A stretch of DNA of 39,129 bases. It comes from a phage. Under the pieces are notes generated by a model. It was not told the origin of the DNA. It saw nothing but the letters and a program-made list of their open reading frames with translations, and searched no databases. Position 1 is the stretch's first letter. Each line of letters begins with the position of its first letter. The stretch lies in sequence record PX309103.1. One strand, given 5' to 3'. The position numbers and the translations under genes are program-made. Below are positions 1 to 38,786 of this stretch, one piece after another.

Positions 1-180
1 TCTCACAGTTCAAGAACCTCAAGTCTCCCCATAGGCCCTCTTTAAGTCCAGACCAAAGGCCCTACCCCCAGTCTATCATAAGGTTGGACCGATGGTCAAG
101 ACTTCAGGTCGACGATAGGTCTAGGCTATGGCTGGAGGTTAGACGATAGGTAGGGGCTATAGGTCTGTCTCTGTGTCTCT
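1..180. repeat. Left direct terminal repeat (180 bp), identical to 38950-39129
   Basis: Read directly: bases 1-180 are identical to the last 180 bases of the window; T7-like genomes carry such terminal redundancy. Confidence 0.95.
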
Positions 181-216
181 ATCTGTATAGTGTTATAGTA
201 TAACATTACGTCCACA

Positions 217-306
217 CCTACAGTCTCACTACCTACAGTCATTGACTCCTGCTGTACCTACAGCCTCAACCATAAGACACCAACGCCTACAGTCAGAGAC
301 CTACAG
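217..306. repeat. Array of 5 CCTACAG heptamers just inside the left terminal repeat
   Basis: CCTACAG at 217, 232, 257, 286 and 300; resembles the short repeat arrays flanking T7 terminal repeats. Confidence 0.7.
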
Positions 307-556
307 TTAATAGACACACAGCTATAGACTTAAGGTCAAAGACATGTTAGTCAAAGACTATCCTCTTACACCATGAGGCCGACGATAGCTTAATCGATAT
401 TATTTAAATAACATATTGACTATAGGTCCAGACTATGGCCTAATAGCTTCCGTCAACACGACACGGCAACAACCGGATAGTGAAGACGCCGGGTCATCCC
501 GGTTAAGTAGACAGCCTGATAAGTCATACGAACAACAGGCAGATGACAGAAAGTAG

Positions 557-586: not shown

Positions 587-775
587 GTACCACATCGAAA
601 CAACGGTGATGACCAACACTGAAATGGTCTACCTGAAGTCCTCTGACTGAAGGGAATGCTCTTTAACAATCTGGATAAACTCTTAATGTGCGCCGATAGC
701 GACTAACTACAGGGTCTTTGAGTCTACATCTGAAGGCCCTGACTGATAGTCACTAACAACTGAGAGGATATAACT

Positions 776-1285
776 ATGGAACGTAACGCTAACGCATACT
801 ATGAGCTGCTGGCTGCAACCGTTGAGCTGTTCAATGAGCGTATTCAGTACGACGAAATAGCTGAAGGCGATGACTACAGCGATGCGCTGCATGAGGTCGT
901 AGACGGTCAGGTCCCGCACTATTACCACGAGATTTTCACGGTGATGGCTGCTGATGGCATAGACCACGAGTTTGAGGACTCTGGGCTGATGCCTGAGACC
1001 AAGAACGTAACGCGTATACTACAAGCTCGCATCTATGAGGCACTTTATAACGATGTGTCTAATAGCTCTGAGGTGGTCTGGTTTGAGGCTGAAGAGAGCG
1101 ACGAAGAGGATGAATATTGGGTAGTTGACACTAGAACAGGCGAGATAATTGAGCAAGCTGTATCACTTTACGAGGCTACTGCATGTGCAAAAGAACTCTA
1201 TGAGGAAGGTTTTCACATGCAGGTCGAAGACATCAACGATAACGTAGTGTTCGACCCTGCGGCTGCTGAGGAGGATTGCGAGTGA
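776..1285 (+). CDS. ocr: Ocr-like anti-restriction DNA-mimic protein (T7 gp0.3 family) with C-terminal extension
   Basis: 169 aa, very acidic; the segment VPHYYHEIFTVMAADGIDHEFEDSGLMPETKNVTRILQARIYEAL matches recalled T7 Ocr; GAGGA RBS; first gene after the early promoter region. Confidence 0.85.
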   Translation: MERNANAYYELLAATVELFNERIQYDEIAEGDDYSDALHEVVDGQVPHYYHEIFTVMAADGIDHEFEDSGLMPETKNVTRILQARIYEALYNDVSNSSEVVWFEAEESDEEDEYWVVDTRTGEIIEQAVSLYEATACAKELYEEGFHMQVEDINDNVVFDPAAAEEDCE

Positions 1286-1442
1286 TAGTAACTTATGGTC
1301 TCTGCCAGCACCACGTCACCATAAGCCGGGCGTTGGTCAAAACCGGGCAGTTAAACCACGAGGAGGCCATGCGTCTCTTGAAAGTGGTCTACAGGAGACG
1401 CAAGCGCATGCACGATAGTTTACACACTGAGGACAAGTAAAC

Positions 1443-1574
1443 ATGTATCAGATAACTTATAGCAGTGAACAGGCATTCTACGAGGGGTGCTACGAGCTGA
1501 TGAAGCGTGGGGCTTGCTGGTGGGCTGACTGTAAGCAAGATGACCACTGTATCGGTGGAAGTGTAACCGTGTAA
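1443..1574 (+). CDS. Small Cys-rich early protein (43 aa), hypothetical
   Basis: ORF MYQITYSSEQAFYEGCYELMKRGACWWADCKQDDHCIGGSVTV with GAGGA upstream; below the ORF-track size cutoff. Confidence 0.4.
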   Translation: MYQITYSSEQAFYEGCYELMKRGACWWADCKQDDHCIGGSVTV

Positions 1575-1655
1575 GGCCTAGCTGAGTGATAGACGAGAGG
1601 TCATCGACTGATAGGTGGCCTCAAAGATTACCACTTAAATTGATAGGAGTTAACT

Positions 1656-1823
1656 ATGAAATTTACAGGCATAGCACTTTACGTAACGATTATTATGGCG
1701 TGGCTGACTGCGGTATTCACTGATGGGAACGCATTACGACTAGGCTGGATGGCAGTGGATATTATCTTCTCTCCGGTAGGGGTCGTGCGGGGCATCTTGA
1801 TGTGGTTTGGATTGGCGGGATAA
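1656..1823 (+). CDS. Small hydrophobic early protein (55 aa), hypothetical
   Basis: ORF MKFTGIALYVTIIMAWLTAVFTDGNALRLGWMAVDIIFSPVGVVRGILMWFGLAG with TAGGAG RBS; predicted transmembrane character. Confidence 0.45.
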   Translation: MKFTGIALYVTIIMAWLTAVFTDGNALRLGWMAVDIIFSPVGVVRGILMWFGLAG

Positions 1824-1912
1824 ACTATGAGTGTGGGATATTTGGTATGCCTGTCTCCGGTCATCTTTCTGATAGCTTGGGGGATATACGATTGTATTAA
1901 ACGGAAATCACT

Positions 1913-2110
1913 ATGAGTATCGCACTATTGATAGCCATAGGCTATGGACTTATCGCCTACGTGCTGGTGAGAGACATCAACAAAGCGCGTAAAGTCTACA
2001 AATTAAACTATGTACGTCTGGGTCGCTGGACTGTACGTCAACCTAACGGACGATTCCTGCGCAATTTAGCGAACGTCTGGGATATAGCAACTCTTGGGAG
2101 CAAACTGTAA
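1913..2110 (+). CDS. Hypothetical early membrane protein (65 aa)
   Basis: ORF with hydrophobic N-terminus; + strand, packed between early genes. Confidence 0.5.
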   Translation: MSIALLIAIGYGLIAYVLVRDINKARKVYKLNYVRLGRWTVRQPNGRFLRNLANVWDIATLGSKL

Positions 2111-2436
2111 TGAACAAGTCATACGGGATTAATCTGGTACACTCTATGGACGCAGAAATGAACATGTTAAGCCTACTGGCTACCGGGTATCGTCACGGAA
2201 CGTCAAGTCACACCGCACGTCAACAGCAGGAGCGGGACCGTGTACTACAGGCGCGACTCCGGGCAGAGGGCCATAAGTCCGAACTGATGTGTCTGGCGTA
2301 TGGCGGACGACCGATCACTGACGATGGTAAACTTTTAGTCTCAGGCTGGAAGGCGATAGACCAACGGTCAACCATCAAGCACACGACTCACGGTGACTTC
2401 AGCCATCTCCACGCTAACCCACTGATATGCAAGTAA
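2110..2436 (+). CDS. Hypothetical early protein (108 aa) at the T7 0.6/0.7 position
   Basis: ORF start overlaps the preceding stop (TAATG); I recognise no known domain. Confidence 0.5.
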   Translation: MNKSYGINLVHSMDAEMNMLSLLATGYRHGTSSHTARQQQERDRVLQARLRAEGHKSELMCLAYGGRPITDDGKLLVSGWKAIDQRSTIKHTTHGDFSHLHANPLICK

Positions 2437-2441
2437 TTCTG

Positions 2442-2464
2442 ACTTAACTATCACTATAGGACTC
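2442..2464 (+). promoter_or_regulatory. Phage RNAP promoter upstream of gene 1 (TTAACTATCACTATAGGACT)
   Basis: Matches the in-genome consensus TAAACTATCACTATAGG found 11 times. Confidence 0.7.
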
Positions 2465-2533
2465 AAGGTCTAAGACTCCAAGTGAAAGACCAAAGAGACT
2501 CTAAGTGAAAGACTAATAACAAGGACTTTAAGT

Positions 2534-5215
2534 ATGAGCGTCATCTCTATTGACAAACACGACTTCTCTGATGTGTCAAACGCCATTGAGCCGTTTAACC
2601 TGCTGGCTGACCACTACGGGCAAGACCTTGCAGTCAAACAGCTTCAGCTTGAGCATGAGGCATACACTGAAGGCGAGCGACGTTTCATCAAAAACCTTGA
2701 GCGACAGACTGAGCGCGGGGAACTGGCAGACAATCAGGTCGCCAAGCCTTTGATGCAGACTCTGGTCCCTAAGATTGCGCAAGCAGTCAAGGAGTGGCAC
2801 GAAGGTCCAGACGGGAAGCTGTCAACCTCTCGTCCTAGCGTAGCGTTCACCATGTTGAGCACTGAAGAGAAGGCCGTCAAGGACCGCTCTATGCGCATCT
2901 CCTGTGAGTCCGCTGCGGTTATCATACTGAAGGTAATACTCTCCAAGCTGGTCAAGCCCGAAGGGATACCGATTACACCTATGGCCTCCGCGATAGGTCG
3001 CACACTTGAGGACGAAATCCGCTTCGGTCGCATCCGTGACAAAGAGAAAGAGCACTTCAAGAAGGCGATAGCTGATAACCTGAATAAGCGTGCCGGGGCA
3101 TCCTACAAGAAAGCCTACATGCAAGCGGTAGAGGCATCCATGCTGGAGCAAGGCCAACTGGAAGATGCGTGGGGGACTTGGAGTCCTACAGAGGCTGTCC
3201 ACGTTGGCATTAAGATGCTCGAGATTGTCATCCAGTCAACACAACTTGTCGAGCTTAAGCGTTACGGTGCTGGCAATGCAGCGACTGACGTAGAGATGGT
3301 CCACCTGTCAGACTTCTGGGTCAAGAAGATGGCACAACGAGGATTCAGCCTTGCGGGTATCGCTCCTGTCTACCAGCCTTGCGTCGTTCCACCAAAGCCG
3401 TGGACTGGTGTCGTAGGCGGTGGGTATTGGGCCAAAGGTCGAAGACCATTGCCACTGATTCGCTTAGGGTCTAAGTCTGCGGTAGCACGTTACGAAGACG
3501 TGTACATGCCTGAAGTCTATGACGCTGTGAATATCATCCAGAATACACCTTGGAAAGTGAACAAGAAGGTATTGGACGTGGTGAACATGGTCGAGAAGCT
3601 GAACAACACGCCTATTGATGACATCCCTCAGATGGAGCCGCTGAAGCCTGAGGACTATGCTGGTGAGACCGAAGAAGAACTCAAGGCATGGAAGAAGGCT
3701 GCTGCTGGTATCTACCGCCGAGAGAAGGCCCGGCAGTCACGTAGATTGTCACTGAGCTTTATCGTTAACCAAGCGAACAAGTTCTCTCAGTTCAAGGCCA
3801 TCTGGTTTCCGTACAACATGGACTGGCGCGGTCGCGTCTACGCTGTGCCGATGTTCAACCCTCAAGGCAACGACATGCAGAAGGGTCTCCTGACTCTGGC
3901 AGTCGGCAAGCCTATTGGTGCTGACGGTTTCAAATGGCTGAAGGTCCACGGTGCAAACTGCGCGGGTGTCGATAAAGTCACCTTCGAGGAGCGCATCAAG
4001 TGGGTGGAAGACAACCACGAAAACATCATGGCTGCTGCTAAGGCACCGATGGATAGTATTGAGTGGTGGGGCAAGTTAGACTCTCCGTTCTGTTTCCTCG
4101 CGTTCTGCTTCGAGTATGCTGGCGTAATGCACCACGGCCTGTCTTACTCCTGCTCGCTGCCGATAGCGTTCGATGGGTCCTGCTCTGGTATTCAGCACTT
4201 CAGTGCGATGCTTCGTGACCACATCGGTGGACATGCAGTAAACCTGACGCCATCCGGTATGGTACAAGACATCTACCGCATTGTGTCTGACCGCATTGAG
4301 GAGGAGCTTAAAGTCCTGCTGATTAACGGTACTGACAACGAGATGGTCACTCACGAGGACAAGAAAACTGGTGAGATTACCGAACGTATCAAGCTGGGGA
4401 CACGAGAGCTGGCCCGTCAGTGGCTGACCTACGGGATGTCACGTAAGGTCACTAAGCGTTCAGTCATGACTCTGGCATACGGGTCGAAAGAGTACGGCTT
4501 CGCAGACCAAGTTTACGAGGACATCGTGATGCCAGCGATTGACTCAGGGTCTGGCGCTATGTTCACCGAGCCGAGCCAAGCGTCTCGCTTCATGGCTAAG
4601 ATGATTTGGGAAGCTGTGAGTGTGACTGTAGTTGCTGCGGTTGACGCGATGAAGTGGCTTCAAGGTGCTGCCAAGCTGCTGGCTGCTGAGGTGAAGGACA
4701 AGAAGACTGGAGAAATCCTGAAGCCTTGCCTTCCGGTACACTGGGTAACACCTGATGGTTTCCCGGTCTGGCAGGAATACCGCAAGAAGGATACCACTCG
4801 TCTGAACCTGATGTTCTTAGGGTCATTCAACCTTCAGCCTACCGTCAACAGAGGTACGAAGAAAGAGCTGGACAAACACAAGCAGGAGTCAGGAATTAGC
4901 CCGAACTTCGTCCACTCACAAGATGGTAGCCACCTCCGCAAGACTGTAGTCCACACGCACCGCAAGTATGGCGTGATGTCATTCGCAGTGATTCACGATA
5001 GCTTCGGGACCATCCCGGCTGACGCTGAGTATCTGTTCCGTGGCGTCCGTGAGACGATGGTCGAGACCTACCGCGACAACGATGTGCTGCTTGACTTCTA
5101 CGAGCAGTTTGAATACCAGCTTCATGAGAGCCAGCGCGACAAGTTACCTGAGCTACCGAAGAAAGGTAAACTGAATATCGAGGACATCTTGTCTTCAGAC
5201 TTTGCATTCGCTTAA
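2534..5215 (+). CDS. Single-subunit DNA-dependent RNA polymerase (T7 gp1 family)
   Basis: 893 aa; motifs DGSCSGIQHFSAM, HDSFGT and C-terminal ...DFAFA match T7 RNAP. Confidence 0.97.
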   Translation: MSVISIDKHDFSDVSNAIEPFNLLADHYGQDLAVKQLQLEHEAYTEGERRFIKNLERQTERGELADNQVAKPLMQTLVPKIAQAVKEWHEGPDGKLSTSRPSVAFTMLSTEEKAVKDRSMRISCESAAVIILKVILSKLVKPEGIPITPMASAIGRTLEDEIRFGRIRDKEKEHFKKAIADNLNKRAGASYKKAYMQAVEASMLEQGQLEDAWGTWSPTEAVHVGIKMLEIVIQSTQLVELKRYGAGNAATDVEMVHLSDFWVKKMAQRGFSLAGIAPVYQPCVVPPKPWTGVVGGGYWAKGRRPLPLIRLGSKSAVARYEDVYMPEVYDAVNIIQNTPWKVNKKVLDVVNMVEKLNNTPIDDIPQMEPLKPEDYAGETEEELKAWKKAAAGIYRREKARQSRRLSLSFIVNQANKFSQFKAIWFPYNMDWRGRVYAVPMFNPQGNDMQKGLLTLAVGKPIGADGFKWLKVHGANCAGVDKVTFEERIKWVEDNHENIMAAAKAPMDSIEWWGKLDSPFCFLAFCFEYAGVMHHGLSYSCSLPIAFDGSCSGIQHFSAMLRDHIGGHAVNLTPSGMVQDIYRIVSDRIEEELKVLLINGTDNEMVTHEDKKTGEITERIKLGTRELARQWLTYGMSRKVTKRSVMTLAYGSKEYGFADQVYEDIVMPAIDSGSGAMFTEPSQASRFMAKMIWEAVSVTVVAAVDAMKWLQGAAKLLAAEVKDKKTGEILKPCLPVHWVTPDGFPVWQEYRKKDTTRLNLMFLGSFNLQPTVNRGTKKELDKHKQESGISPNFVHSQDGSHLRKTVVHTHRKYGVMSFAVIHDSFGTIPADAEYLFRGVRETMVETYRDNDVLLDFYEQFEYQLHESQRDKLPELPKKGKLNIEDILSSDFAFA

Positions 5216-5227
5216 CAGGAGAGAGTT

Positions 5228-5443
5228 ATGAAATTTGCACACAAGCAGGCTGGCGTTAAGGGCGGGACTCAAATCGTGACCGTAACAGAACACAACGGCA
5301 AGGGTCTGGTGAAGACCACGGTCATTCCTACCGAGATGTCAAAGCAGCTTAACGTCCCATTCAAGACCCTAGTCTGTCTTGTGGAATCTAGCCACGAGAA
5401 ATACCTGAAAGACGCAGTGTCCAAGCTGGAGCAGACCAAATGA
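5228..5443 (+). CDS. Hypothetical protein (71 aa) between RNAP gene and the phi1.1-type promoter
   Basis: ORF with AGGAGA RBS; T7 has no gene at this position as far as I recall. Confidence 0.5.
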   Translation: MKFAHKQAGVKGGTQIVTVTEHNGKGLVKTTVIPTEMSKQLNVPFKTLVCLVESSHEKYLKDAVSKLEQTK

Positions 5444-5516
5444 CAGACTTACAGTTACTGGCCTTGTGGTTGGGAGCACTAGCAGTATTCACTTTAATCC
5501 AACGCAGAAGAGGTTA

Positions 5517-5541
5517 ACCCTAAACTATCACTATAGGATTA
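5517..5541 (+). promoter_or_regulatory. Phage RNAP promoter (phi1.1-like)
   Basis: TAAACTATCACTATAGGATT. Confidence 0.8.
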
Positions 5542-5546
5542 GACTC

Positions 5547-5573
5547 AAGGTCATGACTCAAAGTCGTGGCCTT
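5547..5573 (+). promoter_or_regulatory. Conserved hairpin, RNase III-site-like (R1.1 position)
   Basis: AAGGUCAUGAC / GUCGUGGCCUU 11-bp stem with G-U pairs and UCAAA loop; one of 3 copies of the same element. Confidence 0.6.
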
Positions 5574-5611
5574 CATGATTAACCCTAACTCATTCAATCA
5601 GGAGCTACACC

Positions 5612-5791
5612 ATGTATCAGAACACTATCAACTTCGAGCGCATCCGTGAACGTCAGCAGACTGAAGATTATATTCCGAAGGGACGCAAGCTGAACAAGAC
5701 CAAGCGTGGCGGTGGTGTAAAGGGTGCTTTCCGTAACGCTGAAGGAAAAGACTCTATGGTCAACCAAGAGAAGTATTTCGTAGGAGCATAA
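5612..5791 (+). CDS. gp1.1-like small basic protein (59 aa)
   Basis: Contains KGRKLNKTKR, matching recalled T7 gp1.1; AGGAG RBS. Confidence 0.7.
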   Translation: MYQNTINFERIRERQQTEDYIPKGRKLNKTKRGGGVKGAFRNAEGKDSMVNQEKYFVGA

Positions 5792-5795
5792 CGCT

Positions 5796-6059
5796 ATGGG
5801 CCGACTTTATAGTGGCAACCTAAACGCTTTCAAAGCAGCGTGTAACAGGCTCTATCAGTTAGACTTCGCTGTCATATCTCAGGAGTTTCAAGACCTTACG
5901 TCACGCCAAGAGTGTATGAGACTCAGGGTAGAGGACCGGGCGGGTAACATATTCGCTCTTGAGTCCTTCGCACACTACGATGAAGACGTACTGTACAACA
6001 CTGCAACAGAATTCCTCAATGGTCTCGCTGACCAACTCGACACATGGAGCAAATCATAA
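5796..6059 (+). CDS. gp1.2-like protein (inhibitor of host dGTP triphosphohydrolase family)
   Basis: N-terminus MGRLYSGNLNAFKAA... matches recalled T7 gp1.2. Confidence 0.8.
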   Translation: MGRLYSGNLNAFKAACNRLYQLDFAVISQEFQDLTSRQECMRLRVEDRAGNIFALESFAHYDEDVLYNTATEFLNGLADQLDTWSKS

Positions 6060-7162
6060 TGACAACGACTATCAAAACTAACCCGCACCGCGCTGTAGAT
6101 TACTCTGAGTCTGGCGTTAAGAAAGCACTGGAAGCAGCCGGGTCTCTGGAAGCTGAAGTGAAGTACGATGGTGTGCGCCTGAATCTCCCGGTCTTCCCTA
6201 CTGGTGAGACTCAATGGTTGAGCCGTGAGTCTAAACCTCTCCCAGCGCTTCAGCATCTGAAGTCAGAACATGGTAGTCCTACCGAATTAACAAACTGTGG
6301 AGACTGGCGCTGGTTCCTGAAGCAAGCAGGACATGAGGTCTCTGGCCTAATGATTGATGGCGAGGTGATGGTCAAAGGCGTGGACTTCAACACGTCTTCC
6401 GGTCTTATCCGCACCATGTGGTCTGACCGCAAGAACTACAAGTGGAACATGAACCCTAAGGCAGATATGGAGACCAAGAAGTCTAACAAGGTTCCCTTCC
6501 AGATTAGCCCTGAGTCCCTACGAGTGGTCGTCTACGGGGTCATCGACCTTAACGTCATCAACGACCCAAAAGCCGAAGGTCCTATTCATAGCGTCACACG
6601 CCTGAAGGCCGAAGCTATCGTCCCTCTCCTCCAGAAATACTTCCCGGAAATCGACTGGGTTCTGTCTGAGTCACACACGGTCTATGACCTTGAGTCGCTC
6701 AGCTCCCTGTACGAAGAGAAGCGTCTGGAAGGACACGAGGGTCTGGTAGTCAAGGACCCGCTTGGTAAATACAAGCGTGGCAAGAAGTCTGGCATGTGGA
6801 AAATGAAGCCTGAGGAGACCATAGACGGGACAGTGTGTGGCCTCGTGTGGGGGACTCAGGGTAAGGCGAACGAAGGTAAGGTCATCGGCTTCGAGGTGCT
6901 ACTTGAGGACGGCATGGTGGTTAACACCTGTGGCCTGACTGAAGAACAGAAGGACGAATTCACAGCTAAAGTCGCTGAATCTAGTGGCTATACCTTGGCT
7001 GGTGGCCCTGTGGTTATTCAGGATGGGACCGAGAAGACCAACCCATACGAAGGCTGGCAGTGTGAAGTCCTCTTCATGGAGCGGTTCCCAGATGGCTCAC
7101 TTCGTCACCCTAGCTTCAAGTGCTGGCGTGGAACTGAAGACAATCCGACCATTAAGAGCTAA
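6059..7162 (+). CDS. ATP-dependent DNA ligase (T7 gp1.3 family)
   Basis: Adenylation motif KYDGVR (EVKYDGVRLNL); start placed at ATG 6059 (GGAG 9 nt upstream, TAATG overlap with previous stop) rather than the ORF-track start 6044. Confidence 0.9.
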   Translation: MTTTIKTNPHRAVDYSESGVKKALEAAGSLEAEVKYDGVRLNLPVFPTGETQWLSRESKPLPALQHLKSEHGSPTELTNCGDWRWFLKQAGHEVSGLMIDGEVMVKGVDFNTSSGLIRTMWSDRKNYKWNMNPKADMETKKSNKVPFQISPESLRVVVYGVIDLNVINDPKAEGPIHSVTRLKAEAIVPLLQKYFPEIDWVLSESHTVYDLESLSSLYEEKRLEGHEGLVVKDPLGKYKRGKKSGMWKMKPEETIDGTVCGLVWGTQGKANEGKVIGFEVLLEDGMVVNTCGLTEEQKDEFTAKVAESSGYTLAGGPVVIQDGTEKTNPYEGWQCEVLFMERFPDGSLRHPSFKCWRGTEDNPTIKS

Positions 7163-7171
7163 CTAAATGTC

Positions 7172-7210
7172 AACCCAGTGGTCTTAGGACTGCTGGGTTT
7201 CTTTGCTTTG
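7172..7210 (+). terminator. Intrinsic terminator after ligase (T7 TE-like)
   Basis: Stem CCCAGUGGUC/GACUGCUGGG with UUAG loop followed by UUUCUUUGCUUUG. Confidence 0.65.
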
Positions 7211-7245
7211 TGCTAGCAAGCTATCGTTTGGGGGAACCAGCCTGA

Positions 7246-7270
7246 CCCTAAGCTATCACTATAGGACAAC
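7246..7270 (+). promoter_or_regulatory. Phage RNAP promoter
   Basis: TAAGCTATCACTATAGGACA. Confidence 0.75.
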
Positions 7271-7293
7271 CATCAACAACCTAAGGAGACTCT

Positions 7294-7554
7294 ATGTCTA
7301 AGAACTTAATGTTCAACCGTTATACCGATACCTTCCACCTGTCCAACAACCCGTTCGCTTGCATTAAGCGCAACGAGAAGCTGGGCTACTTCGGGAAGGC
7401 CGTTAAGTTATCACCTACAGTATTCGCTCTGATTACTCCGAGCAAAGCGGAGGAGGCTCGCCAGAAGCGTGAGACCAACGTACCTGTGGTCTACACTAAG
7501 TGGCCTCGCGTTCGCCTGTTCGTTGAGTTCGTGAAGGAGGTATTCAATGACTAA
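7294..7554 (+). CDS. Hypothetical protein (86 aa), gp1.6-position
   Basis: ORF with AAGGAG RBS directly downstream of a phage promoter. Confidence 0.55.
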   Translation: MSKNLMFNRYTDTFHLSNNPFACIKRNEKLGYFGKAVKLSPTVFALITPSKAEEARQKRETNVPVVYTKWPRVRLFVEFVKEVFND

Positions 7555-7858
7555 GCATGCTCCCGGCTGTACGATATGGAACGGGGCTGAAGTATGTAGC
7601 TGTAGCAACCCGCCTAATACAGACGATGGTGTACGCAAGCCGTCCCACTATCAGGTCTTTGACGGTGTGGAATCCATTGAGATTATCGCCCGGTCCATGA
7701 CTGTCAGTGAGTTCCGTGGTTTCTGCATGGGTAACGTCCTGAAGTATCGACTCCGGGCTGGTAAGAAGTCCGAGCTGGCTACTATGGAGAAGGACCTGAA
7801 CAAAGCCGCCTTCTATCAGGAGCTGTTCGACCAACATAAAGGTAAGTGTCATGCTTAA
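7547..7858 (+). CDS. DUF3310-like protein (possibly related to gp1.7 C-terminal region)
   Basis: Motif ...GNVLKYRLRAGKK...DLNKAAFY resembles the DUF3310 signature from memory; GGAGG RBS. Confidence 0.5.
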   Translation: MTKHAPGCTIWNGAEVCSCSNPPNTDDGVRKPSHYQVFDGVESIEIIARSMTVSEFRGFCMGNVLKYRLRAGKKSELATMEKDLNKAAFYQELFDQHKGKCHA

Positions 7859-7955
7859 TGATATTCTGTACTTCGGATTAATCTGTGCAGGAGTAGGTGC
7901 ATTATTGCGTTTAATGTATTGGGCGATAGAGGCGGAATATGGTAAAACCAAGTGA
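7851..7955 (+). CDS. Small hydrophobic protein (34 aa), hypothetical
   Basis: ORF MLNDILYFGLICAGVGALLRLMYWAIEAEYGKTK; start overlaps previous gene end. Confidence 0.3.
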   Translation: MLNDILYFGLICAGVGALLRLMYWAIEAEYGKTK

Positions 7956-8033
7956 GTGGTGCCGGGAGATGTATGAGAAGACTCTCAACCCGGACTACAT
8001 CACGTTATACAACCAATGGAAGGAGCGCGGTTT

Positions 8034-8192
8034 ATGACTGACGTAGAGAAGAAGTACATCGTGGAGCTTGAGGGTCACATTCAGTCCTTCGAGGTTCCGG
8101 TGTACGCAAAGTCTCTTGAAGAGGCTACCCTGAAGTCCCAAGAGTATGAGGACGCTGGGTTTGTGGTCGGACGGATTCGTCCTGAGACCTAA
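8034..8192 (+). CDS. Gp2-like inhibitor of host RNA polymerase (52 aa)
   Basis: [17 protein letters not shown]...[10 protein letters not shown] matches recalled T7 Gp2. Confidence 0.8.
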
Positions 8193-8210
8193 ACTATCAC
8201 TGTAGGACAG
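8188..8210 (+). promoter_or_regulatory. Phage RNAP promoter variant (phi2.5-like)
   Basis: TAAACTATCACTGTAGGACA; one mismatch in the TATA core. Confidence 0.55.
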
Positions 8211-8250
8211 ACGTCCAGTTCGTAACTTTTAAATTAGGAGATTTACACCA

Positions 8251-8949
8251 ATGGCTAAAGAGCAACTGAAGACTTTCACCACTCCGGTAGCTGGTATCGT
8301 TGAGCCTTACGCATGGCTTAACAAAGCAGACACCAAGTTCAACGAGCGTGGTGAACACAAAGTCAACCTGACATTCGACCTGAGCAACCCGAAGGTCCGT
8401 AAGATGATTGATGTCTTACAGAAGATTCACGACGATGCGTATGCGAAAGCACTTGCAGACCACGAGAAGAACCCGCCTCAGGTTCAGCGTGGCAAGAAGC
8501 CTATTGAACCACGAGAAGGCGACATGCCGTGGATTGAGAATGGTGATGGTACTGTTACCCTGAAGTTTAAATGCTTCGCGTCTTACCTGAAGGATGGTAA
8601 GTCAGAGCCTATCATATTACGGTTCTACGACACCGATGCTAAGTTAATCCGTGACGTCCCGAATATTGGCGCTGGCTCAAAGCTGAAGGTCAAGTTTAAA
8701 GTCCTGCCGTTCAAGTGGAACGCTGCGACTGGTGCAAGCGTTAAGCTCCAGCTTGAGTCCTGCCTTCTGGTAGAACTGAAGGAGTGGAAAGGCGATGGTG
8801 CAGGTGGCGATGGTGGTTGGGGTGATGATGAAGACCTCGGTACCGGCTACAAAGCGTCAACCGATGGTGACTTCGGGTCTGATGACTTCGGTGACGATGG
8901 TTCCGAAGGTGGTTCCGAGTCCAACTCTGGTGGCGATTACGACTTCTAA
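8251..8949 (+). CDS. Single-stranded DNA-binding protein (gp2.5 family)
   Basis: 232 aa; conserved blocks GKKPIEPREGDMPW, SVKLQLES; acidic C-terminal tail ending DYDF. Confidence 0.93.
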   Translation: MAKEQLKTFTTPVAGIVEPYAWLNKADTKFNERGEHKVNLTFDLSNPKVRKMIDVLQKIHDDAYAKALADHEKNPPQVQRGKKPIEPREGDMPWIENGDGTVTLKFKCFASYLKDGKSEPIILRFYDTDAKLIRDVPNIGAGSKLKVKFKVLPFKWNAATGASVKLQLESCLLVELKEWKGDGAGGDGGWGDDEDLGTGYKASTDGDFGSDDFGDDGSEGGSESNSGGDYDF

Positions 8950-9401
8950 TGGCCCAATGGTCTGCAAAACGGGGGCACTCTGTGGGTGCCTACCGCTCTG
9001 GACTTGAAGCCAAGAACCAGCAGTGGCTGGAACAGAACGGCGTCAAAGCGGAGTACGAAAGCCATTATATCAACTATGTGATTCCGGCTTCCGACCACAA
9101 GTACACACCAGATTTTATTCTTCCTAACGGTATCATCGTGGAGACCAAAGGTATCTTCGATAGTGATGACCGTAAGAAGCACCTTCTGGTACGAGAACAG
9201 CACCCAGAGTTAGACATCCGGTTCGTGTTCTCAAGTTCCCGCTCCAAGCTATACAAAGGGTCTCCGACCACGTATGGTGCATGGTGCGAAAAGAACGGCT
9301 ATAAGTATGCCGATAAGTTCATCCCGGTTGAGTGGCTACGAGAGGAGACTGTACGTCTGCCTTCAGGTATCCTCATCCCCAAGAAGAAAGGAGTTAAGTG
9401 A
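8949..9401 (+). CDS. Endonuclease I, Holliday-junction resolvase (gp3 family)
   Basis: 150 aa; YTPDFILPNGIIVETKG...DDRKKHLLVREQHPELDIRFVFSSSRSKLYKGSPT matches T7 gp3. Confidence 0.93.
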   Translation: MAQWSAKRGHSVGAYRSGLEAKNQQWLEQNGVKAEYESHYINYVIPASDHKYTPDFILPNGIIVETKGIFDSDDRKKHLLVREQHPELDIRFVFSSSRSKLYKGSPTTYGAWCEKNGYKYADKFIPVEWLREETVRLPSGILIPKKKGVK

Positions 9402-9871
9402 TGACTCAGAAATATAGACTTAAGGTTGACCGCCACGGGTGGCCTAAAGGTGCTATCGTTACGAAATGTGCGAAAGACCCTGTACCATCATCTGGACTTG
9501 TTCTGGTGGAATCCACTGAGCGTGGCACCTACAAACACGGAGCAGCAGGTCATAACACTCAGCCTGACGGTATGTGGGGGGCGTGGGTTTTAAAAGAAAA
9601 TCTTGAGGAAATTGTAGAGGATAAACCTCAAGTCCTGCCAGCCTCAAGTGTCCCTCCTGTCACCGTTAAACGTGAAGTCCTGACCATCGACAAGATTGGT
9701 GTAGGCCAGACGTTCATCGTCCACGGAAAGCCTGAAGAAGTTTACGTGAAGATTAGCAACTCACACGTCTTCAACCATAAGCGTCTCCAGATGCACACCA
9801 CGGACGCACAGCGCTTCACCCAGCACCTGAATCTAGTGGTCGTAGAATTGGTGGTGTACAATGGTAAGTAA
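9398..9871 (+). CDS. Hypothetical protein (157 aa) inserted between endonuclease I and lysozyme
   Basis: ORF overlaps both neighbours (ATGA at start); I recognise no motif. Confidence 0.55.
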   Translation: MMTQKYRLKVDRHGWPKGAIVTKCAKDPVPSSGLVLVESTERGTYKHGAAGHNTQPDGMWGAWVLKENLEEIVEDKPQVLPASSVPPVTVKREVLTIDKIGVGQTFIVHGKPEEVYVKISNSHVFNHKRLQMHTTDAQRFTQHLNLVVVELVVYNGK

Positions 9872-10319
9872 GGTACAGTTCAACCCACGGTCCCGGACTG
9901 ACGCTATCTTCGTTCACTGTTCGGCTACCAAGCCAGATATGGACATCGGGGTAGAGACCATCCGTATGTGGCACAAGCAGCAAGGCTGGCTGGACGTAGG
10001 CTACCACTTTATCATCAAACGTGATGGCACTGTGGAAGAGGGTCGCCCGGTCAATGTCGTAGGGTCACACGTTAAGGACTGGAACTCACGGTCTGTAGGC
10101 GTCTGCCTTGTAGGCGGAATCAACGCTAAGGGTCAGTTTGAAGCTAACTTCACTCCAGCCCAGATGAACTCCCTGCGCAACAAGCTGGCTGACCTGAAGG
10201 TCCTGTATCCTCAGGCAGAAATCAAAGCACACCATGACGTAGCACCTAAGGCGTGTCCAAGTTTCGACTTGCAACGCTGGCTGTCTACCAATGAACTGGT
10301 CACTTCCGACCGTGGTTAA
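9861..10319 (+). CDS. Lysozyme / N-acetylmuramoyl-L-alanine amidase (gp3.5 family)
   Basis: 152 aa; TDAIFVHCSATKP, GYHFIIKRDGTVEEGR, APKACPSFDL, ELVTSDRG match T7 lysozyme. Confidence 0.95.
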   Translation: MVSKVQFNPRSRTDAIFVHCSATKPDMDIGVETIRMWHKQQGWLDVGYHFIIKRDGTVEEGRPVNVVGSHVKDWNSRSVGVCLVGGINAKGQFEANFTPAQMNSLRNKLADLKVLYPQAEIKAHHDVAPKACPSFDLQRWLSTNELVTSDRG

Positions 10320-10343
10320 TAAACTCTAAAGGAGAATAACTCA

Positions 10344-10559
10344 ATGATTAAACTTATTGAATTTCTTGGTCGTCTGGTGGTGCGTGGTTATCGTCGTGCT
10401 GCGGTACTGGAACGAAAGGTAGAAAAGAAGACTGCTGACAGTGCGGCTGATGCTGCTGCTCTGGCTGACAAGCTAACAATAGCGTCACTGGAAGCTGGCA
10501 TGAAGGCACGTCAAGCTGACACCAAAGCTGACCAGTTGGCTCAGTTCTTCAAAGCCTAA
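10344..10559 (+). CDS. Hypothetical Ala-rich protein (71 aa)
   Basis: ORF with strong RBS AAAGGAGA. Confidence 0.5.
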   Translation: MIKLIEFLGRLVVRGYRRAAVLERKVEKKTADSAADAAALADKLTIASLEAGMKARQADTKADQLAQFFKA

Positions 10560-10577
10560 ACTATCACCTTAGGGATG
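10555..10577 (+). promoter_or_regulatory. Phage RNAP promoter variant upstream of gene 4
   Basis: TAAACTATCACCTTAGGGAT; two mismatches to the consensus core. Confidence 0.45.
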
Positions 10578-10624
10578 GGACCATGAGTCCTGTCCCTTTG
10601 TCCGCATTATTGACTAAGGAGTGA

Positions 10625-12328
<1,704 letters not shown>

Positions 12329-12339
12329 GGAGGAGTACA

Positions 12340-12504
12340 TTGCTAAGAAAACTTAAAGCTCGCTACCATCGGTTCATGTACAAATGGTGGAGCGATGAAG
12401 CAACCTGCCTGTCAAGCATTATAGGAGAACAGAGGTTCGACTCTAAGGCATGGAAGAAAGCTAACCGGAAGTTTATGTATCACTTCTTGCGTACAGACTT
12501 CTAG
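12340..12504 (+). CDS. Hypothetical small basic protein (54 aa), TTG start
   Basis: AGGAGG 6 nt upstream of TTG at 12340; the ORF-track 12307 start lies inside gene 4. Confidence 0.4.
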
Positions 12505-12514
12505 GTCTAGACTC

Positions 12515-12539
12515 AAGGTCATTCACATCGAGTGGCCTT
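12515..12539 (+). promoter_or_regulatory. Conserved hairpin, RNase III-site-like (R4.7 position)
   Basis: AAGGUCAUUC / GAGUGGCCUU stem; same flanks (AGACTCAAGGTC ... TTTATGATTAGAC) as the 5547 and 35956 copies. Confidence 0.6.
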
Positions 12540-12567
12540 TATGATTAGACTAAACGGAGGATTAACC

Positions 12568-14739
12568 ATGTTTGACCTTAAGAGTATCTGGGGTTCTGAC
12601 ATAGAGACCAACGGTCTCCTTGATACAGTCTCCCAGTTTCACTGTGGGGTCCTGATTAACGCCGAGTCGAATGAGACCCTTAAGTATGGGGTAGCTCCGA
12701 TGGTCGGTATCGTCGGTGGCTTCAAAGAGTATGTACAGAAGGTGGAAGAGATTGCCGCATCACCTGATGGTATGCTGGTATTCCACAACGGTATCAACTA
12801 TGACGTCCCGGCTATTGACAAGCTGAAGCGTCTGTACTTTGGGAAACGCTTTAACTTCCCGAAACACAAGATGATTGATACCTTGGTGCTGGGACGCTTG
12901 ATGTATCCAAACATTAAGTTCTCAGACATGGGCGCAGTGAAAGCTGGTCGTCTGCCACCTAAGATGATGGGACGCCAGTCTCTTGAGGCTTGGGGTTATC
13001 GTCTCGGTGAGATGAAAGGTGAGTACAAACACGATTACGTTGCCAAGTGCAAGGCTGAAGGTATCGAATATAAGGCTGGGGACGAATGGTTGTTCCCGTC
13101 TCAGGAGATGCTGGACTATAACGTTCAAGACGTTGTGGTCACACTGTCGTTGTTCAAGAAGTTCCTGACTGACAAGTATTACTTCCAGTCTGAACAGTTC
13201 GCTTTCGACCAGATTTATGCGTTGCGTCTGGAACATGATGCTGCGTGGACCTGTGCGAAGATGGAGCGTAACGGCTATCCGATGAACACCGAGATGGTCG
13301 AAGGCTTATATCGTGAACTAACCGTCAAACGTGCAGAGCTGTTGGACAAGCTGCGTTCGACTTTTGGTAGCTGGTATGCACCGAAGGGAGGCAAGGAGTT
13401 CTTCAGGCACCCACGGACAGGAAAGGACCTCCCGAAGTATCCACGAGTCGTGTATCCTAAGGTCGGTGGCATCTTTAAGAAGCCGAAGAACAAAGCTCAA
13501 CGCTTAGGTCTGGAGCCTTGCGAGTTCGACTCACGAGACACGATGGAGGGAGCGCCGTTCACACCCATCACTTACGTTGAGTTTAATCCGGGAAGCGGGG
13601 ACCACTTAGCGAAAGTTCTGATGGAGCGTGGCTGGGAGCCTGTGGACTTCACTGACACCGGGAAACCTGTAGTCGATGACGAGACGTTAGAACACGTTAA
13701 GTTACCGGACGCAGAGGCTCAGGCTTGCGTAGAGCTGGTCCGTGAGTATCTGGTAGTCCAGAAGCGCATAGGTCAGGCTGCTGAAGGTAAGAACGCATGG
13801 TTGAAACTTGTAGGTCCAGACGGACGTATGCACGGTTCAATCAACCCATGCGGGGCAGTAACTGGACGTGCTACTCACAGTTCACCAAACATGGCTCAGG
13901 TCCCTGCTAACGGTGCTCCGTATGGTGAGATTTGCCGTGGTGCTTTCGGTGCAGCTTGGAACAAGACGGATGGTAAGCCAGACCCTTGGATTCAAGTAGG
14001 TGTGGATGCTTCAGGTCTTGAGCTTCGTTGTCTGGGGAACCGAGCGGCTCCGTTTGATGGCGGTGCCTATGCGAAGACTGTGGTAGAAGGTGACATCCAC
14101 TGGGCCAACGCAGTAAACGCTGGGTTAGCACCTAACGTCCCACGCGATAAGTCGAACCACGACCATGATGCTTTCCGTAACAACGCTAAGACGTTCATCT
14201 ATGCGTTCCTGTATGGTGCAGGGGCCGCTAAGATTGGACTGATAGTAGGCGGTGGGAAGAAGGAAGGTTCAGCTCTCATGAAGAAATTCATTGAGGGTAC
14301 ACCAGCCATCAAAGACCTCAGGGAAGCTGTGAGTAGTACGTTAATCTCAGACTCTAAGTGGGTGGACGGAGAGAATATCGTCAAGTGGAAACGCCGTTGG
14401 TTGCGTGGACTTGATGGTCGCCGTATCCACATCCGGTCTCCACACTCAGCACTGAACGCCTTACTTCAGGGTGACGGTGCGGTAGTCTGTAAGCACTGGA
14501 TTGTCGAGACTGAACGTATGCTTGAAGAGGCAGGGTATGTTCACGGATGGGAAGGTGACTTTGCGTACATGGCTTGGGTGCATGATGAATTGCAGATTGC
14601 GTGTCGTACTCAGGAGATTGCCGAAGAAGTCGTCAAGATTGCGCAACTTGCTATGCGTAAGGTGGGTGAGTTCTATAACTTTAAATGTGTCCTTGATACC
14701 GAAGGTAAGATTGGACCAACGTGGAAGGAGTGTCACTAA
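12568..14739 (+). CDS. DNA polymerase (gp5 family, Pol I-like with 3'-5' exonuclease)
   Basis: Strong T7 gp5 similarity (SDIETNGLL exo motif, KYPRVVYPKVGGIFKKPKNKAQR, AVTGRATHS, DASGLELRCL, YMAWVHDELQ); start at ATG 12568 with GGAGG RBS. Confidence 0.96.
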   Translation: MFDLKSIWGSDIETNGLLDTVSQFHCGVLINAESNETLKYGVAPMVGIVGGFKEYVQKVEEIAASPDGMLVFHNGINYDVPAIDKLKRLYFGKRFNFPKHKMIDTLVLGRLMYPNIKFSDMGAVKAGRLPPKMMGRQSLEAWGYRLGEMKGEYKHDYVAKCKAEGIEYKAGDEWLFPSQEMLDYNVQDVVVTLSLFKKFLTDKYYFQSEQFAFDQIYALRLEHDAAWTCAKMERNGYPMNTEMVEGLYRELTVKRAELLDKLRSTFGSWYAPKGGKEFFRHPRTGKDLPKYPRVVYPKVGGIFKKPKNKAQRLGLEPCEFDSRDTMEGAPFTPITYVEFNPGSGDHLAKVLMERGWEPVDFTDTGKPVVDDETLEHVKLPDAEAQACVELVREYLVVQKRIGQAAEGKNAWLKLVGPDGRMHGSINPCGAVTGRATHSSPNMAQVPANGAPYGEICRGAFGAAWNKTDGKPDPWIQVGVDASGLELRCLGNRAAPFDGGAYAKTVVEGDIHWANAVNAGLAPNVPRDKSNHDHDAFRNNAKTFIYAFLYGAGAAKIGLIVGGGKKEGSALMKKFIEGTPAIKDLREAVSSTLISDSKWVDGENIVKWKRRWLRGLDGRRIHIRSPHSALNALLQGDGAVVCKHWIVETERMLEEAGYVHGWEGDFAYMAWVHDELQIACRTQEIAEEVVKIAQLAMRKVGEFYNFKCVLDTEGKIGPTWKECH

Positions 14740-35100: not shown

Positions 35101-35354
35101 ATGCTGTTCTGTGCTATGACAAGTATCCACGGATGACCGATACGGTATTTTCGCACAATGAAATCATTGAACACACTGACGAGGAGGGTAATGTCACCAC
35201 TACGGAAGAACCTGTATACACCGAGGTGGTTATTCACGAAGAGGGTGAGGAGTGGGGTGTTCGGCCTGACGGAATTTTCTTTGCTGAAGCCGCTTATCAG
35301 AGAAGAAAACTGGAAAGAATCGAAGCCAGACTTTCTGCTCTTGAACAGAAGTAA
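32160..35354 (+). CDS. Tailspike endosialidase (endo-N-acetylneuraminidase) with gp17-like N-terminal adaptor and C-terminal intramolecular chaperone domain
   Basis: 1064 aa; N-terminus FDYLARTFVVVTL resembles T7 gp17 N-domain; central region with GDGVTDDT; C-terminal domain typical of auto-cleaving chaperone domains; recalled resemblance to phage K1F endoNF. Confidence 0.9.
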   Translation: MSTITQFPSGNTQYRIEFDYLARTFVVVTLVNSSNPTLNRVLEVGRDYRFLNPTMIEMLVDQSGFDIVRIHRQTGTDLVVDFRNGSVLTASDLTNSELQAIHIAEEGRDQTVDLAKEYADAASSSAGNAKDSEDEARRIAESIREAGLIGYITRRSFEKGYNVTTWSEVLLWEEDGDYYRWDGTLPKNVPAGSTPETSGGIGLGAWVSVGDAALRSQISNPEGAILYPELHRARWLDEKDVRGWGAKGDGVTDDTAALTSALNDTPVGQRLNGNGKTYKVTSLPDISRFINTRFVYERIPGQPLYYVSEEFVQGELFKITDTPYYNAWPQDKAFVYENVIYAPYMGSDRHGVSRLHVSWVKSGDDGQTWSTPEWLTDLHPDYPTVNYHCMSMGVCRNRLFAMIETRTLAKNALTNCALWDRPMSRSLHLTGGITKAANQRYATIHVPDHGLFVGDFVNFSNSAVTGVSGDMKVATVIDKDSFTVLTPNQQDSDLNNAGKNWHMGTSFHKSPWRKTDLGLIPRVTEVHSFSAIDNNGFVMGYHQGDVAPREVGLFYFPNAFDNPANYVRRQIPSEYEPDASEPCIKYYDGVLYLITRGTRSDRLGSSLHRSRDIGQTWESLRFPHNVHHTTLPFAKVGDDLIMFGSERAENEWEAGAPDDRYKASYPRTFYARLNVNNWNADGIEWVNITDQIYQGGIVNSGVGVGSVVVKDSYIYYMFGGEDHFNPWTYGDNSARDPFKSDGHPSDLYCYKMKIGPDNRVSRDFRYGAVPNRAVPVFFDTNGIRTVPAPMEFTGDLGLGHVTIRASTSSNIRSEVLMEGEYGFIGKSIPTDNPAGQRIMFCGGEGTSATTGAQITLYGANNTDSRRIVYNGDEHLFQSADVKPYNDNVTALGGPRNRFTTAYLGSNPIVTSNGERKTEPVVFDDAFLDAWSDVHYIMYQWLDAVQLKGNDARIHFGVIAQQIRDVFIAHGLMDENSTNCRYAVLCYDKYPRMTDTVFSHNEIIEHTDEEGNVTTTEEPVYTEVVIHEEGEEWGVRPDGIFFAEAAYQRRKLERIEARLSALEQK

Positions 35355-35684: not shown

Positions 35685-35944
35685 CGCAGATGGACTTAGA
35701 GAAGTTCCTCTTGATGCTTGATACTGAGCGTGCTCGACTTATGCTGCAAGACTTGCGGGATGACACTAAGCGTTCACCTCAGCTCTATAACGCCATTGAG
35801 AAGCTGCTTGCTCGTCACAACTTTGTGTTAAGTAAGGTGTCTATGGACGAGAAGACGCTGGCTGATATGGAGGCCCTGAACGCAGAGTACGATAAGGTGC
35901 TTTCAGCGACTGAGGATAATGACACAGGGTATGGTGTTCAATAA
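35681..35944 (+). CDS. Terminase small subunit / DNA maturation protein A (gp18 family)
   Basis: RSPQLYNAIEKLLARH matches T7 gp18. Confidence 0.88.
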   Translation: MTQMDLEKFLLMLDTERARLMLQDLRDDTKRSPQLYNAIEKLLARHNFVLSKVSMDEKTLADMEALNAEYDKVLSATEDNDTGYGVQ

Positions 35945-35955
35945 GTGTTAGACTC

Positions 35956-35982
35956 AAGGTCATTACTATATGTAGTGGCCTT
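35956..35982 (+). promoter_or_regulatory. Conserved hairpin, RNase III-site-like (R18.5 position)
   Basis: AAGGUCAUUAC / GUAGUGGCCUU stem with UAUAU loop; third copy of the conserved element. Confidence 0.6.
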
Positions 35983-36045
35983 TATGGTTAACACTAACTA
36001 GTGGAGGCGACTCTACGTGAAATCTGATAAACCGGGAGGGCAACT

Positions 36046-38255: not shown

Positions 38256-38350
38256 CTGAATGAATAACTATAGGCGAAAACTGAATTAATAAGCAGTTAG
38301 TAACCTATAGTTACTACCAGTCTAACCTACTGTTTTATAAGGGGTTTGGA

Positions 38351-38373
38351 CTTAACTATCACTATAGGGAAGA
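38351..38373 (+). promoter_or_regulatory. Phage RNAP promoter near right end (phiOR-like)
   Basis: TTAACTATCACTATAGGGAAG. Confidence 0.85.
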
Positions 38374-38551
38374 CCCCCGGTTACTTATAGTATTACTGTA
38401 GTGAATATACATATGCAGACTTTATGCAAGACCTTAGGAGGCAGACTCCGAGTTCTTACCTAAGGCTTGCACCGATGGACGGAGGGTGATATTAATCATA
38501 ATCCCTCCAATACAGATAGTAAAGACCATAGATACAGGAGGTATGTAGCAT

Positions 38552-38710: not shown

Positions 38711-38743
38711 CGCAATCATGGTAACGATTCATGAGAGGAAGAC

Positions 38744-38786
38744 CTAAGGTCAGTACGTGGATAAAGACTCACTGTACTGACCTTAG
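38744..38786 (+). promoter_or_regulatory. Perfect 13-bp inverted repeat hairpin downstream of gene 19.5
   Basis: CTAAGGTCAGTAC (38744-38756), 17-nt loop, GTACTGACCTTAG (38774-38786); shares the AAGGUCA 5' arm with the other hairpins. Confidence 0.6.

Follow-up and report, generated by a model that had tools for sequence, protein, structure and literature searches.

We describe five hairpins in the window, the whole 39,129-nucleotide stretch of phage DNA analysed here (sequence record PX309103.1), which very probably act as intercistronic processing signals for host RNase III, orthologous to the R-sites of phages T7 and T3. The analysis shows homology in both sequence and structure, synteny, covariation and specificity for one strand; from these we infer cleavage, its exact position and its effects on mRNA stability and translation. 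By every feature of sequence or structure tested, the sites can be assigned to the RNase III family of the T7 group, as further examples of a familiar kind. The observation holds but is unremarkable, and it leaves unchanged how RNase III sites are understood to work.

Genomic context and the repeated hairpins

The window represents a complete genome of the T7 group, K1F-like (Kayfunavirus) in type. Its direct terminal repeats are 180 bp long and exact (1-180 and 38950-39129). A Megablast search with positions 5000-13000 returned 275 phage records, the best of which were Kayfunavirus or K1F-like coliphages at about 94% identity. All long open reading frames (ORFs) are carried by the + strand, and Pfam matches were obtained for genes 1 (RNA polymerase), 1.1, 1.2, 4, 5 (DNA polymerase), 18 and 18.5. 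The phage promoter consensus AACTATCACTATAGGA is matched 12 times in the whole window with up to three mismatches, against 0.35 matches expected. An exact copy, similar to phi1.1 (Table 1), sits together with a 71-aa ORF (5228-5443) between gene 1 and the hairpin that precedes gene 1.1, and transcription from it starts in a stretch that overlaps the 5' strand of that hairpin's lower stem. Inspection of the ORF list for the early region yielded no frame of the size of gene 0.7, a difference from T7, and the gene 0.7 kinase is apparently missing. In T7 this kinase stimulates RNase III; its apparent loss would affect the rate of RNase III action and not the recognition of sites.

Three of the five hairpins had been singled out in an earlier note on this DNA as conserved structures with common flanks, stems of 10-11 bp and paired substitutions at the stem tips, and a reading of the sequence found them exactly so. 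The 13-mer AGACTCAAGGTCA occurs without mismatch only at 5541, 12509 and 35950, in each case on the + strand, and the 16-mer GTGGCCTTYATGRTTA only at 5566, 12532 and 35975. When up to three mismatches were allowed, GTGGCCTTYATGRTTA gave four matches compared with a shuffle mean of 0.62, and none of 100 shuffles reached four. The stem tips (UGAC/GUCG, UUC/GAG and UUAC/GUAG) differ yet all remain paired, and the sense folds of the three hairpins are better than those of shuffled sequences (z -2.7 to -3.2). Their placement after gene 1, before gene 5 and before gene 18.5 was borne out by the Pfam matches. All three hairpins are real, but the count of three was too low: the window holds five sites, an R0.5-type and an R0.3-type site having been overlooked. 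One precedes gene 0.3, one lies among the early genes, two precede genes 1.1 and 5, and the last separates genes 18 and 18.5, with a distance of about 25-60 nt from site to start codon.

Table 1. Positions of the putative RNase III-type sites, the core stems of the three repeated hairpins, and two further elements of the window
Feature	Position	Strand	Stem arms, length and loop	Context and predicted cut
Diverged R0.3-type site	697..755	+		Upstream of gene 0.3 (start 776); assigned on synteny and fold
R0.5-type site	1586..1634	+		Between small early ORFs 1443-1574 and 1656-1823; predicted cut after A1625
Phage RNA polymerase promoter, phi1.1-like	5523..5538	+		Exact match to consensus AACTATCACTATAGGA
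R1.1-type site	5536..5585	+		Just upstream of gene 1.1 (start 5612); predicted cut U5576/G5577
Stem of R1.1-type site	5547-5573		AAGGUCAUGAC / GUCGUGGCCUU; 11 bp; loop UCAAA	
R4.7-type site	12504..12551	+		Immediately ahead of the DNA polymerase gene, gene 5 (start 12568); predicted cut U12542/G12543
Stem of R4.7-type site	12515-12539		AAGGUCAUUC / GAGUGGCCUU; 10 bp; loop ACAUC	
R18.5-type site	35945..35994	+		Gap between gene 18 (end 35944) and gene 18.5 (start 36046); predicted cut U35985/G35986
Stem of R18.5-type site	35956-35982		AAGGUCAUUAC / GUAGUGGCCUU; 11 bp; loop UAUAU	
Right-end palindrome	38744..38786		Perfect 13-bp inverted repeat, arms 38744-38756 / 38774-38786	

Common architecture and a covariance model

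Each element corresponds to an RNA of about 50 nt on the transcribed strand, with helices that amount to about two turns in all. The lower stem, 6 bp formed by the outer flanks, varies in sequence while its pairing is kept (GUGUUA/UAACAC, GGUCUA/UAGACU, GUGAUA/UAUCAC). It is followed by a conserved, asymmetric internal loop (5' GACUC versus 3' YAUGAU) and by an upper stem of 10-11 bp, in which a conserved AAGGUC/GGCCUU core with two conserved U-G wobbles supports a tip and a loop that are free to vary. Minimum free energy folds of four sites and of the region 697-755 all gave this two-helix layout, which is the same as that of T7 R1.1.

The RNase III processing sites of T7 were reportedly treated by Dunn and Studier in 1983, and T7 R1.1, which the Nicholson laboratory uses as its model substrate, is the standard one in RNase III biochemistry. 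We take the T7 sites to lie at coordinates 890, 1468, 3138, 5887, 6448, 11203, 13892, 18563, 27281 and 36856. In the T7 sequence each of these coordinates falls 3 nt after CCTT, a consistency that supports them. T7 R0.5, R1.1, R1.3, R4.7 and R18.5 carry ACTCAAGGTC...GTGGCCTTTATGATT in the same register as the window elements, and all five have sequences resembling ACTCAAGGTC...GTGGCCTT(T/C)ATGATT. The sequence and architecture held in common with these five T7 sites support the proposal of the earlier note that its hairpins are RNase III sites.

The likeness to T7 extends to the window sites' ACUCAAGGUC...GUGGCCUUUAUGAUU and to their layout of lower stem, asymmetric internal loop and upper stem, as well as to their location on the same strand and at the same intercistronic positions. 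The two phages differ in that T7 has ten sites and the window five: sites of the R1.3, R6.5 and R13 types are missing from the window, as is any convincing site of the R1 or R3.8 type. A positional match with T7 R1.1, R4.7 and R18.5 had also been claimed for the three repeated hairpins. It holds for R1.1 and R18.5, whereas the second hairpin directly precedes gene 5, as R4.7 does in T3, and T7 R4.7 precedes gene 4.7. T3 resembles the window further in that its promoter phi1.1 overlaps the annotated R1.1 stem-loop, and is unlike it in having ten sites, of which R1, R1.3, R3.8, R6.5 and R13 are without counterparts in the window. The R6.5 sites of T7, T3 and K11 have a promoter inside the loop (phi6.5, within the apical loop, in the case of T3); neither R6.5- nor R13-type sites were found in the window, and there is nothing comparable around the promoter at 16599.

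An alignment of four window sites and five T7 sites (A1), which shows 68% mean column identity and 14 invariant columns, served as the seed of a covariance model, R1, with 15 base pairs (6 in the lower and 9 in the upper stem). Run on the window with filters off, the model returned exactly four strong matches of 57-68 bits, namely the R0.5-type (1579-1642; 57.4 bits, E 9e-12), R1.1-type (5529-5593; 64.9 bits), R4.7-type (12497-12559; 67.2 bits) and R18.5-type sites (35938-36002; 67.7 bits), all matched over the full length of the model, the next-best match scoring 14.8 bits on the antisense strand. It also recovered R6.5, R0.3 and R1 of T7, which lie outside the seed. Since the T7 records V01146 and NC_001604, as consulted here, do not list RNase III features, T3 was used as an independent standard: ten stem-loops are annotated in its record (AJ318471) as 'RNase III recognition site', and no T3 sequence had entered the seed. 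Eight of these ten were matched (R0.5, R4.7, R1.1, R18.5, R0.3, R1.3, R6.5 and R1), and the T3 + strand gave zero further matches at E<1. Matches at syntenic positions were likewise obtained in K1F, K11 and Kvp1. Pseudomonas phage gh-1 gave none, though 13 putative sites are annotated in its record; the conserved motif therefore belongs to the lineages of enterobacterial phages that were tested (T7, T3, K11, Kvp1 and K1F-like phages). A scan of the whole window against Rfam at gathering thresholds produced no match, Rfam being without a family for these elements. The K1F records NC_007456 and AM084414 contain no RNase III site features, and no discussion of RNase III sites in K1F-like phages was found in the literature searched.

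In the R4.7-type site, ACUCAAGGUCAUUC...GAGUGGCCUUUAUGAUU (12509-12547) is identical to T7 R1.1 over the upper stem and the internal loop. The ORF that follows the R1.1-type site corresponds to Pfam Phage_1_1, and those flanking the R18.5-type site to DNA_Packaging_2 and Phage_lysis; the latter site is syntenic with T7 R18.5 and with the annotated T3 R18.5. The R0.5-type element (1589-1630) has the upstream flank GCTGAGTGATAGAC in common with T7 R0.5, and differs from the T7 pattern in two respects: the basal pair of its upper stem is G-C and not A-U, a change on both sides, and its internal loop deviates (GACGA / AAAGAU). Given this variant loop, its cleavage behaviour may differ.

The diverged element at 697-755 found no match in the scan of the window with the model, because its upper stem differs: the core has gained one G-C pair. 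It nevertheless has a lower stem, an internal loop and an upper stem of 9-10 bp (CAGGGUCUU / AAGGCCCUG), and its fold, which none of 200 shuffles equalled (z -3.9), is the two-helix layout of T7 R1.1 and K1F R0.3. It has exactly the same flanks (ACTACAGG... / ...CCTGACTGATAGTCACTAAC) as K1F 1026-1089, an element just before gene 0.3 that the model does match, at 36 bits. On the strength of its fold and its synteny, 697-755 was accepted as an R0.3-type site that has diverged.

Two half-sites were rejected. The first, AGACTTAAGGTCA at 326-338, is one mismatch away from the 5' arm, has no 3' partner and folds no better than shuffled sequences (z -0.66). The second, GGACTCAAGGTCT at 2459-2471, lies directly after the promoter upstream of gene 1 and was considered as an R1-type site; it forms only a 5-bp stem (GGUCU/AGACC; z -1.0) and is not matched by the model. 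The model separates true sites from look-alikes. With the five sites annotated, the boundaries of mRNAs in K1F-like phages can be predicted from them. Phages of this kind are used against E. coli K1.

Covariation and predicted processing by RNase III

Further members of the family were collected by a pattern scan of viral contigs, which yielded T7-like contigs together with chance matches, the two being easy to distinguish from their 3' flanks and from the pairing within the insert. Loci from the T7-like contigs were then searched with the covariance model, giving an alignment (A2) of 81 sites, 73 of them distinct. Standard pairs make up 96.7% of the pair cells in the 73 distinct sites, whose alignment was fitted to the model and part of which were retrieved with a pattern in which the core stem is fixed. 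Both-sided changes were seen at 13 of the 15 pairs, all six lower-stem pairs covary, and none of 500 shuffles attained any of the covariation measures; when the 3' partner was slid by 1-3 columns, pairing fell to 24-49%. On account of the fitting and the fixed core, the count was repeated after removal of all seeds and pattern matches; in the 16 distinct sequences left, 95.8% of cells are paired, and changes in the core, such as CAUGGGCAC/GUGCCCAUG, are included. Selection on RNA structure, which the earlier note had seen in the three stem tips, is supported by the strong covariation in this larger sample.

The upper part of the stem was also followed in orthologues of the R1.1-type site fetched by their flanks alone, with the stem left unconstrained. 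These carry two alternative tips, AUGAC...GUCGU and GCUG...CAGU, both fully paired; single differences fall mostly in the loop, and the tip is replaced in concert while the stem is kept. Beyond the nine modelled pairs of the upper stem, the apical insert forms a mean of 1.1 extra pairs, compared with 0.5 in shuffles.

Pairing and orientation both single out the transcribed strand. U-G occurs at two upper-stem pairs in 66 and 39 of the 73 distinct sites, and G-U at one lower-stem pair in 30 of the 73; on the opposite strand these pairs would be A-C mismatches. The sense folds of the four sites matched by the model have z scores from -2.5 to -3.2 (-2.5, -3.1 and -3.2 for the R0.5-, R1.1- and R18.5-type sites), and on the antisense strand the folds do not surpass shuffled sequences (z +0.06, -0.94, -0.19 and -1.45 for the R0.5-, R1.1-, R4.7- and R18.5-type sites). 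All sites are oriented with transcription.

In the mechanism that we propose, long transcripts of the host and phage polymerases would traverse the sites, and RNase III would bind the helix of about two turns and make a single phosphodiester cut 3' of the internal loop, as in T7 R1.1. Cuts are predicted after 1625, 5576, 12542 and 35985, positions that rest on the T7 coordinates given above. The upstream mRNA would end in the stable upper hairpin and so be protected from 3' exonucleases, and the downstream mRNA (genes 0.x, 1.1, 5 and 18.5) would begin 25-60 nt ahead of its start codon. Such a scheme follows what is reported for T7, the early precursor of which is cut by host RNase III at five sites, with R1.1 RNA giving products of 47 and 13 nt through one phosphodiester cut (PMC4858673). 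Internal loops confine cleavage to one strand, and the 3' hairpin that results shields upstream RNA from 3'-5' exonucleases (PMC1540722). The precursor stems of E. coli rRNA, which host RNase III also recognises, are comparable in spanning about two turns of double helix (PMC1540722). No positive sequence consensus unites the E. coli substrates of RNase III as a whole (PMC1540722); the T7-group sites are unlike them in forming a homologous family with conserved sequence and with an internal loop that limits cuts to one strand.

Other roles for the hairpins have to be weighed against processing. As stable intergenic hairpins on the transcribed strand they might make the host or the phage RNA polymerase terminate or pause, but none of the stems is followed by a U-tract, the 3' flank being the conserved YAUGAUUA, and a terminator scan run on 38200-39129 alone found zero sites there. 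Three of the five sites, moreover, lie in regions where read-through is needed for genes 5, 18.5 and 1.1, and the matches in T3 fall on annotated RNase III sites and not on the terminators TE and Tphi, so that we regard this role as scarcely credible. It is also highly improbable that the elements act as DNA, whether as origin structures, as protein-binding palindromes or as a small mobile repeat. In favour of this are their repetition, their palindromic form and their intergenic location; in addition, the primary replication origin overlaps the R1.1 region of T7, and RNase III-site palindromes of T7 trigger, as DNA, the Lamassu (DdmABC) defence (PMC11707656). Against this stand the conserved U-G wobbles, which only the transcribed strand would pair, the antisense folds at shuffle level, antisense model scores of at most 15 bits, the orientation of every copy with transcription, and positions that are syntenic across genera and not scattered.

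A third rival is an RNA structure that would control translation of the downstream gene or protect mRNA 3' ends while remaining uncut by RNase III. Each site lies 25-60 nt upstream of a start codon, and some motifs are known to allow RNase III to bind without cutting (PMC1540722). However, the element at 12509 has exactly the internal loop and adjoining helices of T7 R1.1, which is cleaved efficiently, and the conserved parts of the family are exactly those that it has in common with cleaved T7 sites; we consider a purely uncut structure very unlikely. Processing by host RNase III is thus the reading that we retain. As palindromes of this kind are reported to trigger Lamassu (DdmABC) (PMC11707656), the number and position of the sites may also bear on host range.

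A palindrome before the right terminal repeat

A perfect inverted repeat at the right end of the window (Table 1) had been counted as a fourth hairpin of the family. The hairpin exists and its arm does contain AAGGUCA, a heptamer in common with the RNase III-type sites, but membership in the family was rejected: with filters off and E values as high as 10 admitted, the palindrome still gave no match to the covariance model, and it has neither an internal loop nor a lower stem nor a YAUGAUU flank. It consists of a continuous perfect stem, followed by AGCTACTG, and its 5' flank AGACCTAAGGTCA is two mismatches from the family motif. The arms are 100% complementary, and the element lies 3' of a phiOR-like promoter (38354) and of the last gene, a gene 19.5-like ORF. 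The base of the stem (CTAAGGTCAGT / ACTGACCTTAG) does not vary among K1F and 21 stretches of related contigs, and the tip exists in three unrelated versions, each of which pairs with itself.

Transcription from the promoter at 38354, with no terminator in between, would place the palindrome in RNA, where it could be a perfect-duplex RNase III substrate or stabilise the 3' end of the phiOR / gene 19.5 transcript. Its helix of 16-17 bp is stable (-27 kcal/mol; z -3.6), its 5' flank approaches the family motif as noted above, and the gh-1 record labels the equivalent stem-loop 'R13; putative RNase III recognition site'. We nonetheless judge a role as RNA unlikely. The right ends of T7, T3, K11 and Kvp1, like that of the window, gave no model match; internal loop, lower stem and flank are missing, as noted above; and the helix is shorter than the approximately two turns (~22 bp) required for full engagement of RNase III (PMC1540722). 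The base of the stem, furthermore, is purely Watson-Crick and is conserved as sequence, with no covariation, and either strand folds equally well (z -3.6 and -3.9). An intrinsic terminator was rejected too, as a U-tract is lacking and 38200-39129 contains 0 terminator-like sites.

We therefore lean, with some reserve, towards a conserved element that acts at the level of DNA, a reading that is plausible though short of probable, and concatemer processing or packaging would then be its most likely function. Inverted repeats are present in the same interval of T7, T3, K11, Kvp1 and gh-1. Those of T7, T3 and K11 (AGGGATTC...CATCCCT) resemble the window palindrome in their position after the last gene and in combining a conserved stem base with a variable tip; they are unlike it in that they have no sequence similarity to it and in being 73-79% complementary, against 13 of 13 positions in the window. 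Chung, Nardone and Hinkle reportedly described in 1990 a hairpin end on T7 concatemers at about this place, and are said to have proposed it as an intermediate in the duplication of the terminal repeat. The title of that 1990 paper is cited in PMC4925675. We presume the inverted repeat of T7, T3 and K11 to be the site of this hairpin end, the position of which was not given in the literature searched. A more doubtful extension of the same idea is that the palindrome is the Kayfunavirus counterpart of a T7-group DNA hairpin conserved in position and unrelated in sequence, for example a snap-back primer site for duplicating the terminal repeat when concatemers are cut, and that the palindromes of the RNase III sites are perhaps a liability towards Lamassu-like defences that sense palindromes. 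Measured from its centre, the strongest inverted repeat of this interval precedes the right terminal repeat by 185 bp in the window (terminal repeat at 38950-39129), 184 bp in K1F, 190 bp in T7, 184 bp in T3 and ~182 bp in Kvp1, and 145 bp in K11 and 111 bp in gh-1; a fixed distance is thus only partly true, holding at 182-190 bp in four lineages.

Distribution and context of the RNase III-site motif

The conserved RNase III-site motif is lineage-specific and not a general requirement of RNase III. Searching the whole genome of Pseudomonas phage gh-1 with the model of the enterobacterial sites returned zero matches at E values up to 5, and 13 putative RNase III recognition sites are annotated in the gh-1 record. 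In the R6.5-type sites that T7, T3-like and other contigs carry, the apical loop contains the whole phi6.5 promoter, and the site can therefore form in read-through transcripts only; no site with a promoter in its loop was found near the window promoter at 16599.

In Vibrio cholerae, the Lamassu (DdmABC) defence is triggered by T7 RNase III-site palindromes and by similar palindromes of a T7-like vibriophage, which act as DNA hairpins in either orientation (PMC11707656). The RNase III-site elements of the window may therefore be costly to the phage on hosts with Lamassu-like systems.

Early region and tailspike gene

A consensus phage promoter lies immediately 5' of gene 1, which encodes the RNA polymerase, and is followed downstream by a ACTCAAGGTCT half-site and two copies of AGACTCYAAGTGAAAGAC at 23-bp spacing (window 2446-2533); the fold of this region is not significant (z -1.0). 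Such a promoter, which is absent ahead of gene 1 in the T7 and T3 annotations, would let the polymerase transcribe its own gene. Apart from gene 0.3 (169 aa), the early region holds only small ORFs of 43-108 aa, and none in window 776-2436 is as large as gene 0.7 of T7, whose product, a protein kinase, phosphorylates and stimulates RNase III in that phage (PMC4858673).

The gene 17 product, at 1064 aa, is equal in length to the K1F endosialidase tailspike, and thus the phage is probably specific for the K1 capsule.

Right-end palindrome and adjoining repeats

The right-end palindrome is perfect and strand-symmetric, and the right terminal repeat starts 185 bp from its centre. Among relatives the base stem is unchanged and the tip occurs in three alternative versions, each of them self-pairing. 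The inverted repeats found in the same interval of T7, T3, Kvp1, K11 and gh-1 are unrelated to the window palindrome and have their centres 190, 184, about 182, 145 and 111 bp, respectively, before the right terminal repeat. The window palindrome is a candidate for a DNA hairpin site at which concatemers are processed.

Coordinates of the palindrome, gene 17 and R6.5-type sites (L001, L041, L043 and L088: T7, T3-like and other contigs)
Feature	Sequence	Position
Right-end palindrome	Window	38744-38786
Counterpart of right-end palindrome	K1F (L003)	39323-39363
Gene 17	Window	32160-35354
R6.5-type site, phi6.5 in loop	L001	18497-18580
R6.5-type site, phi6.5 in loop	L041	8715-8798
R6.5-type site, phi6.5 in loop	L043	4585-4667
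R6.5-type site, phi6.5 in loop	L088	14089-14165

Short CCTACAG-type repeats form arrays on either side of the 180-bp terminal repeat (window 1-310 and 38850-38950); the T7 terminal repeat is likewise adjoined by arrays of short repeats. AGACTTAAGGTCA (window 326-338) is similar to the sequence that flanks the right-end palindrome on its 5' side, AGACCTAAGGTCA at 38740.
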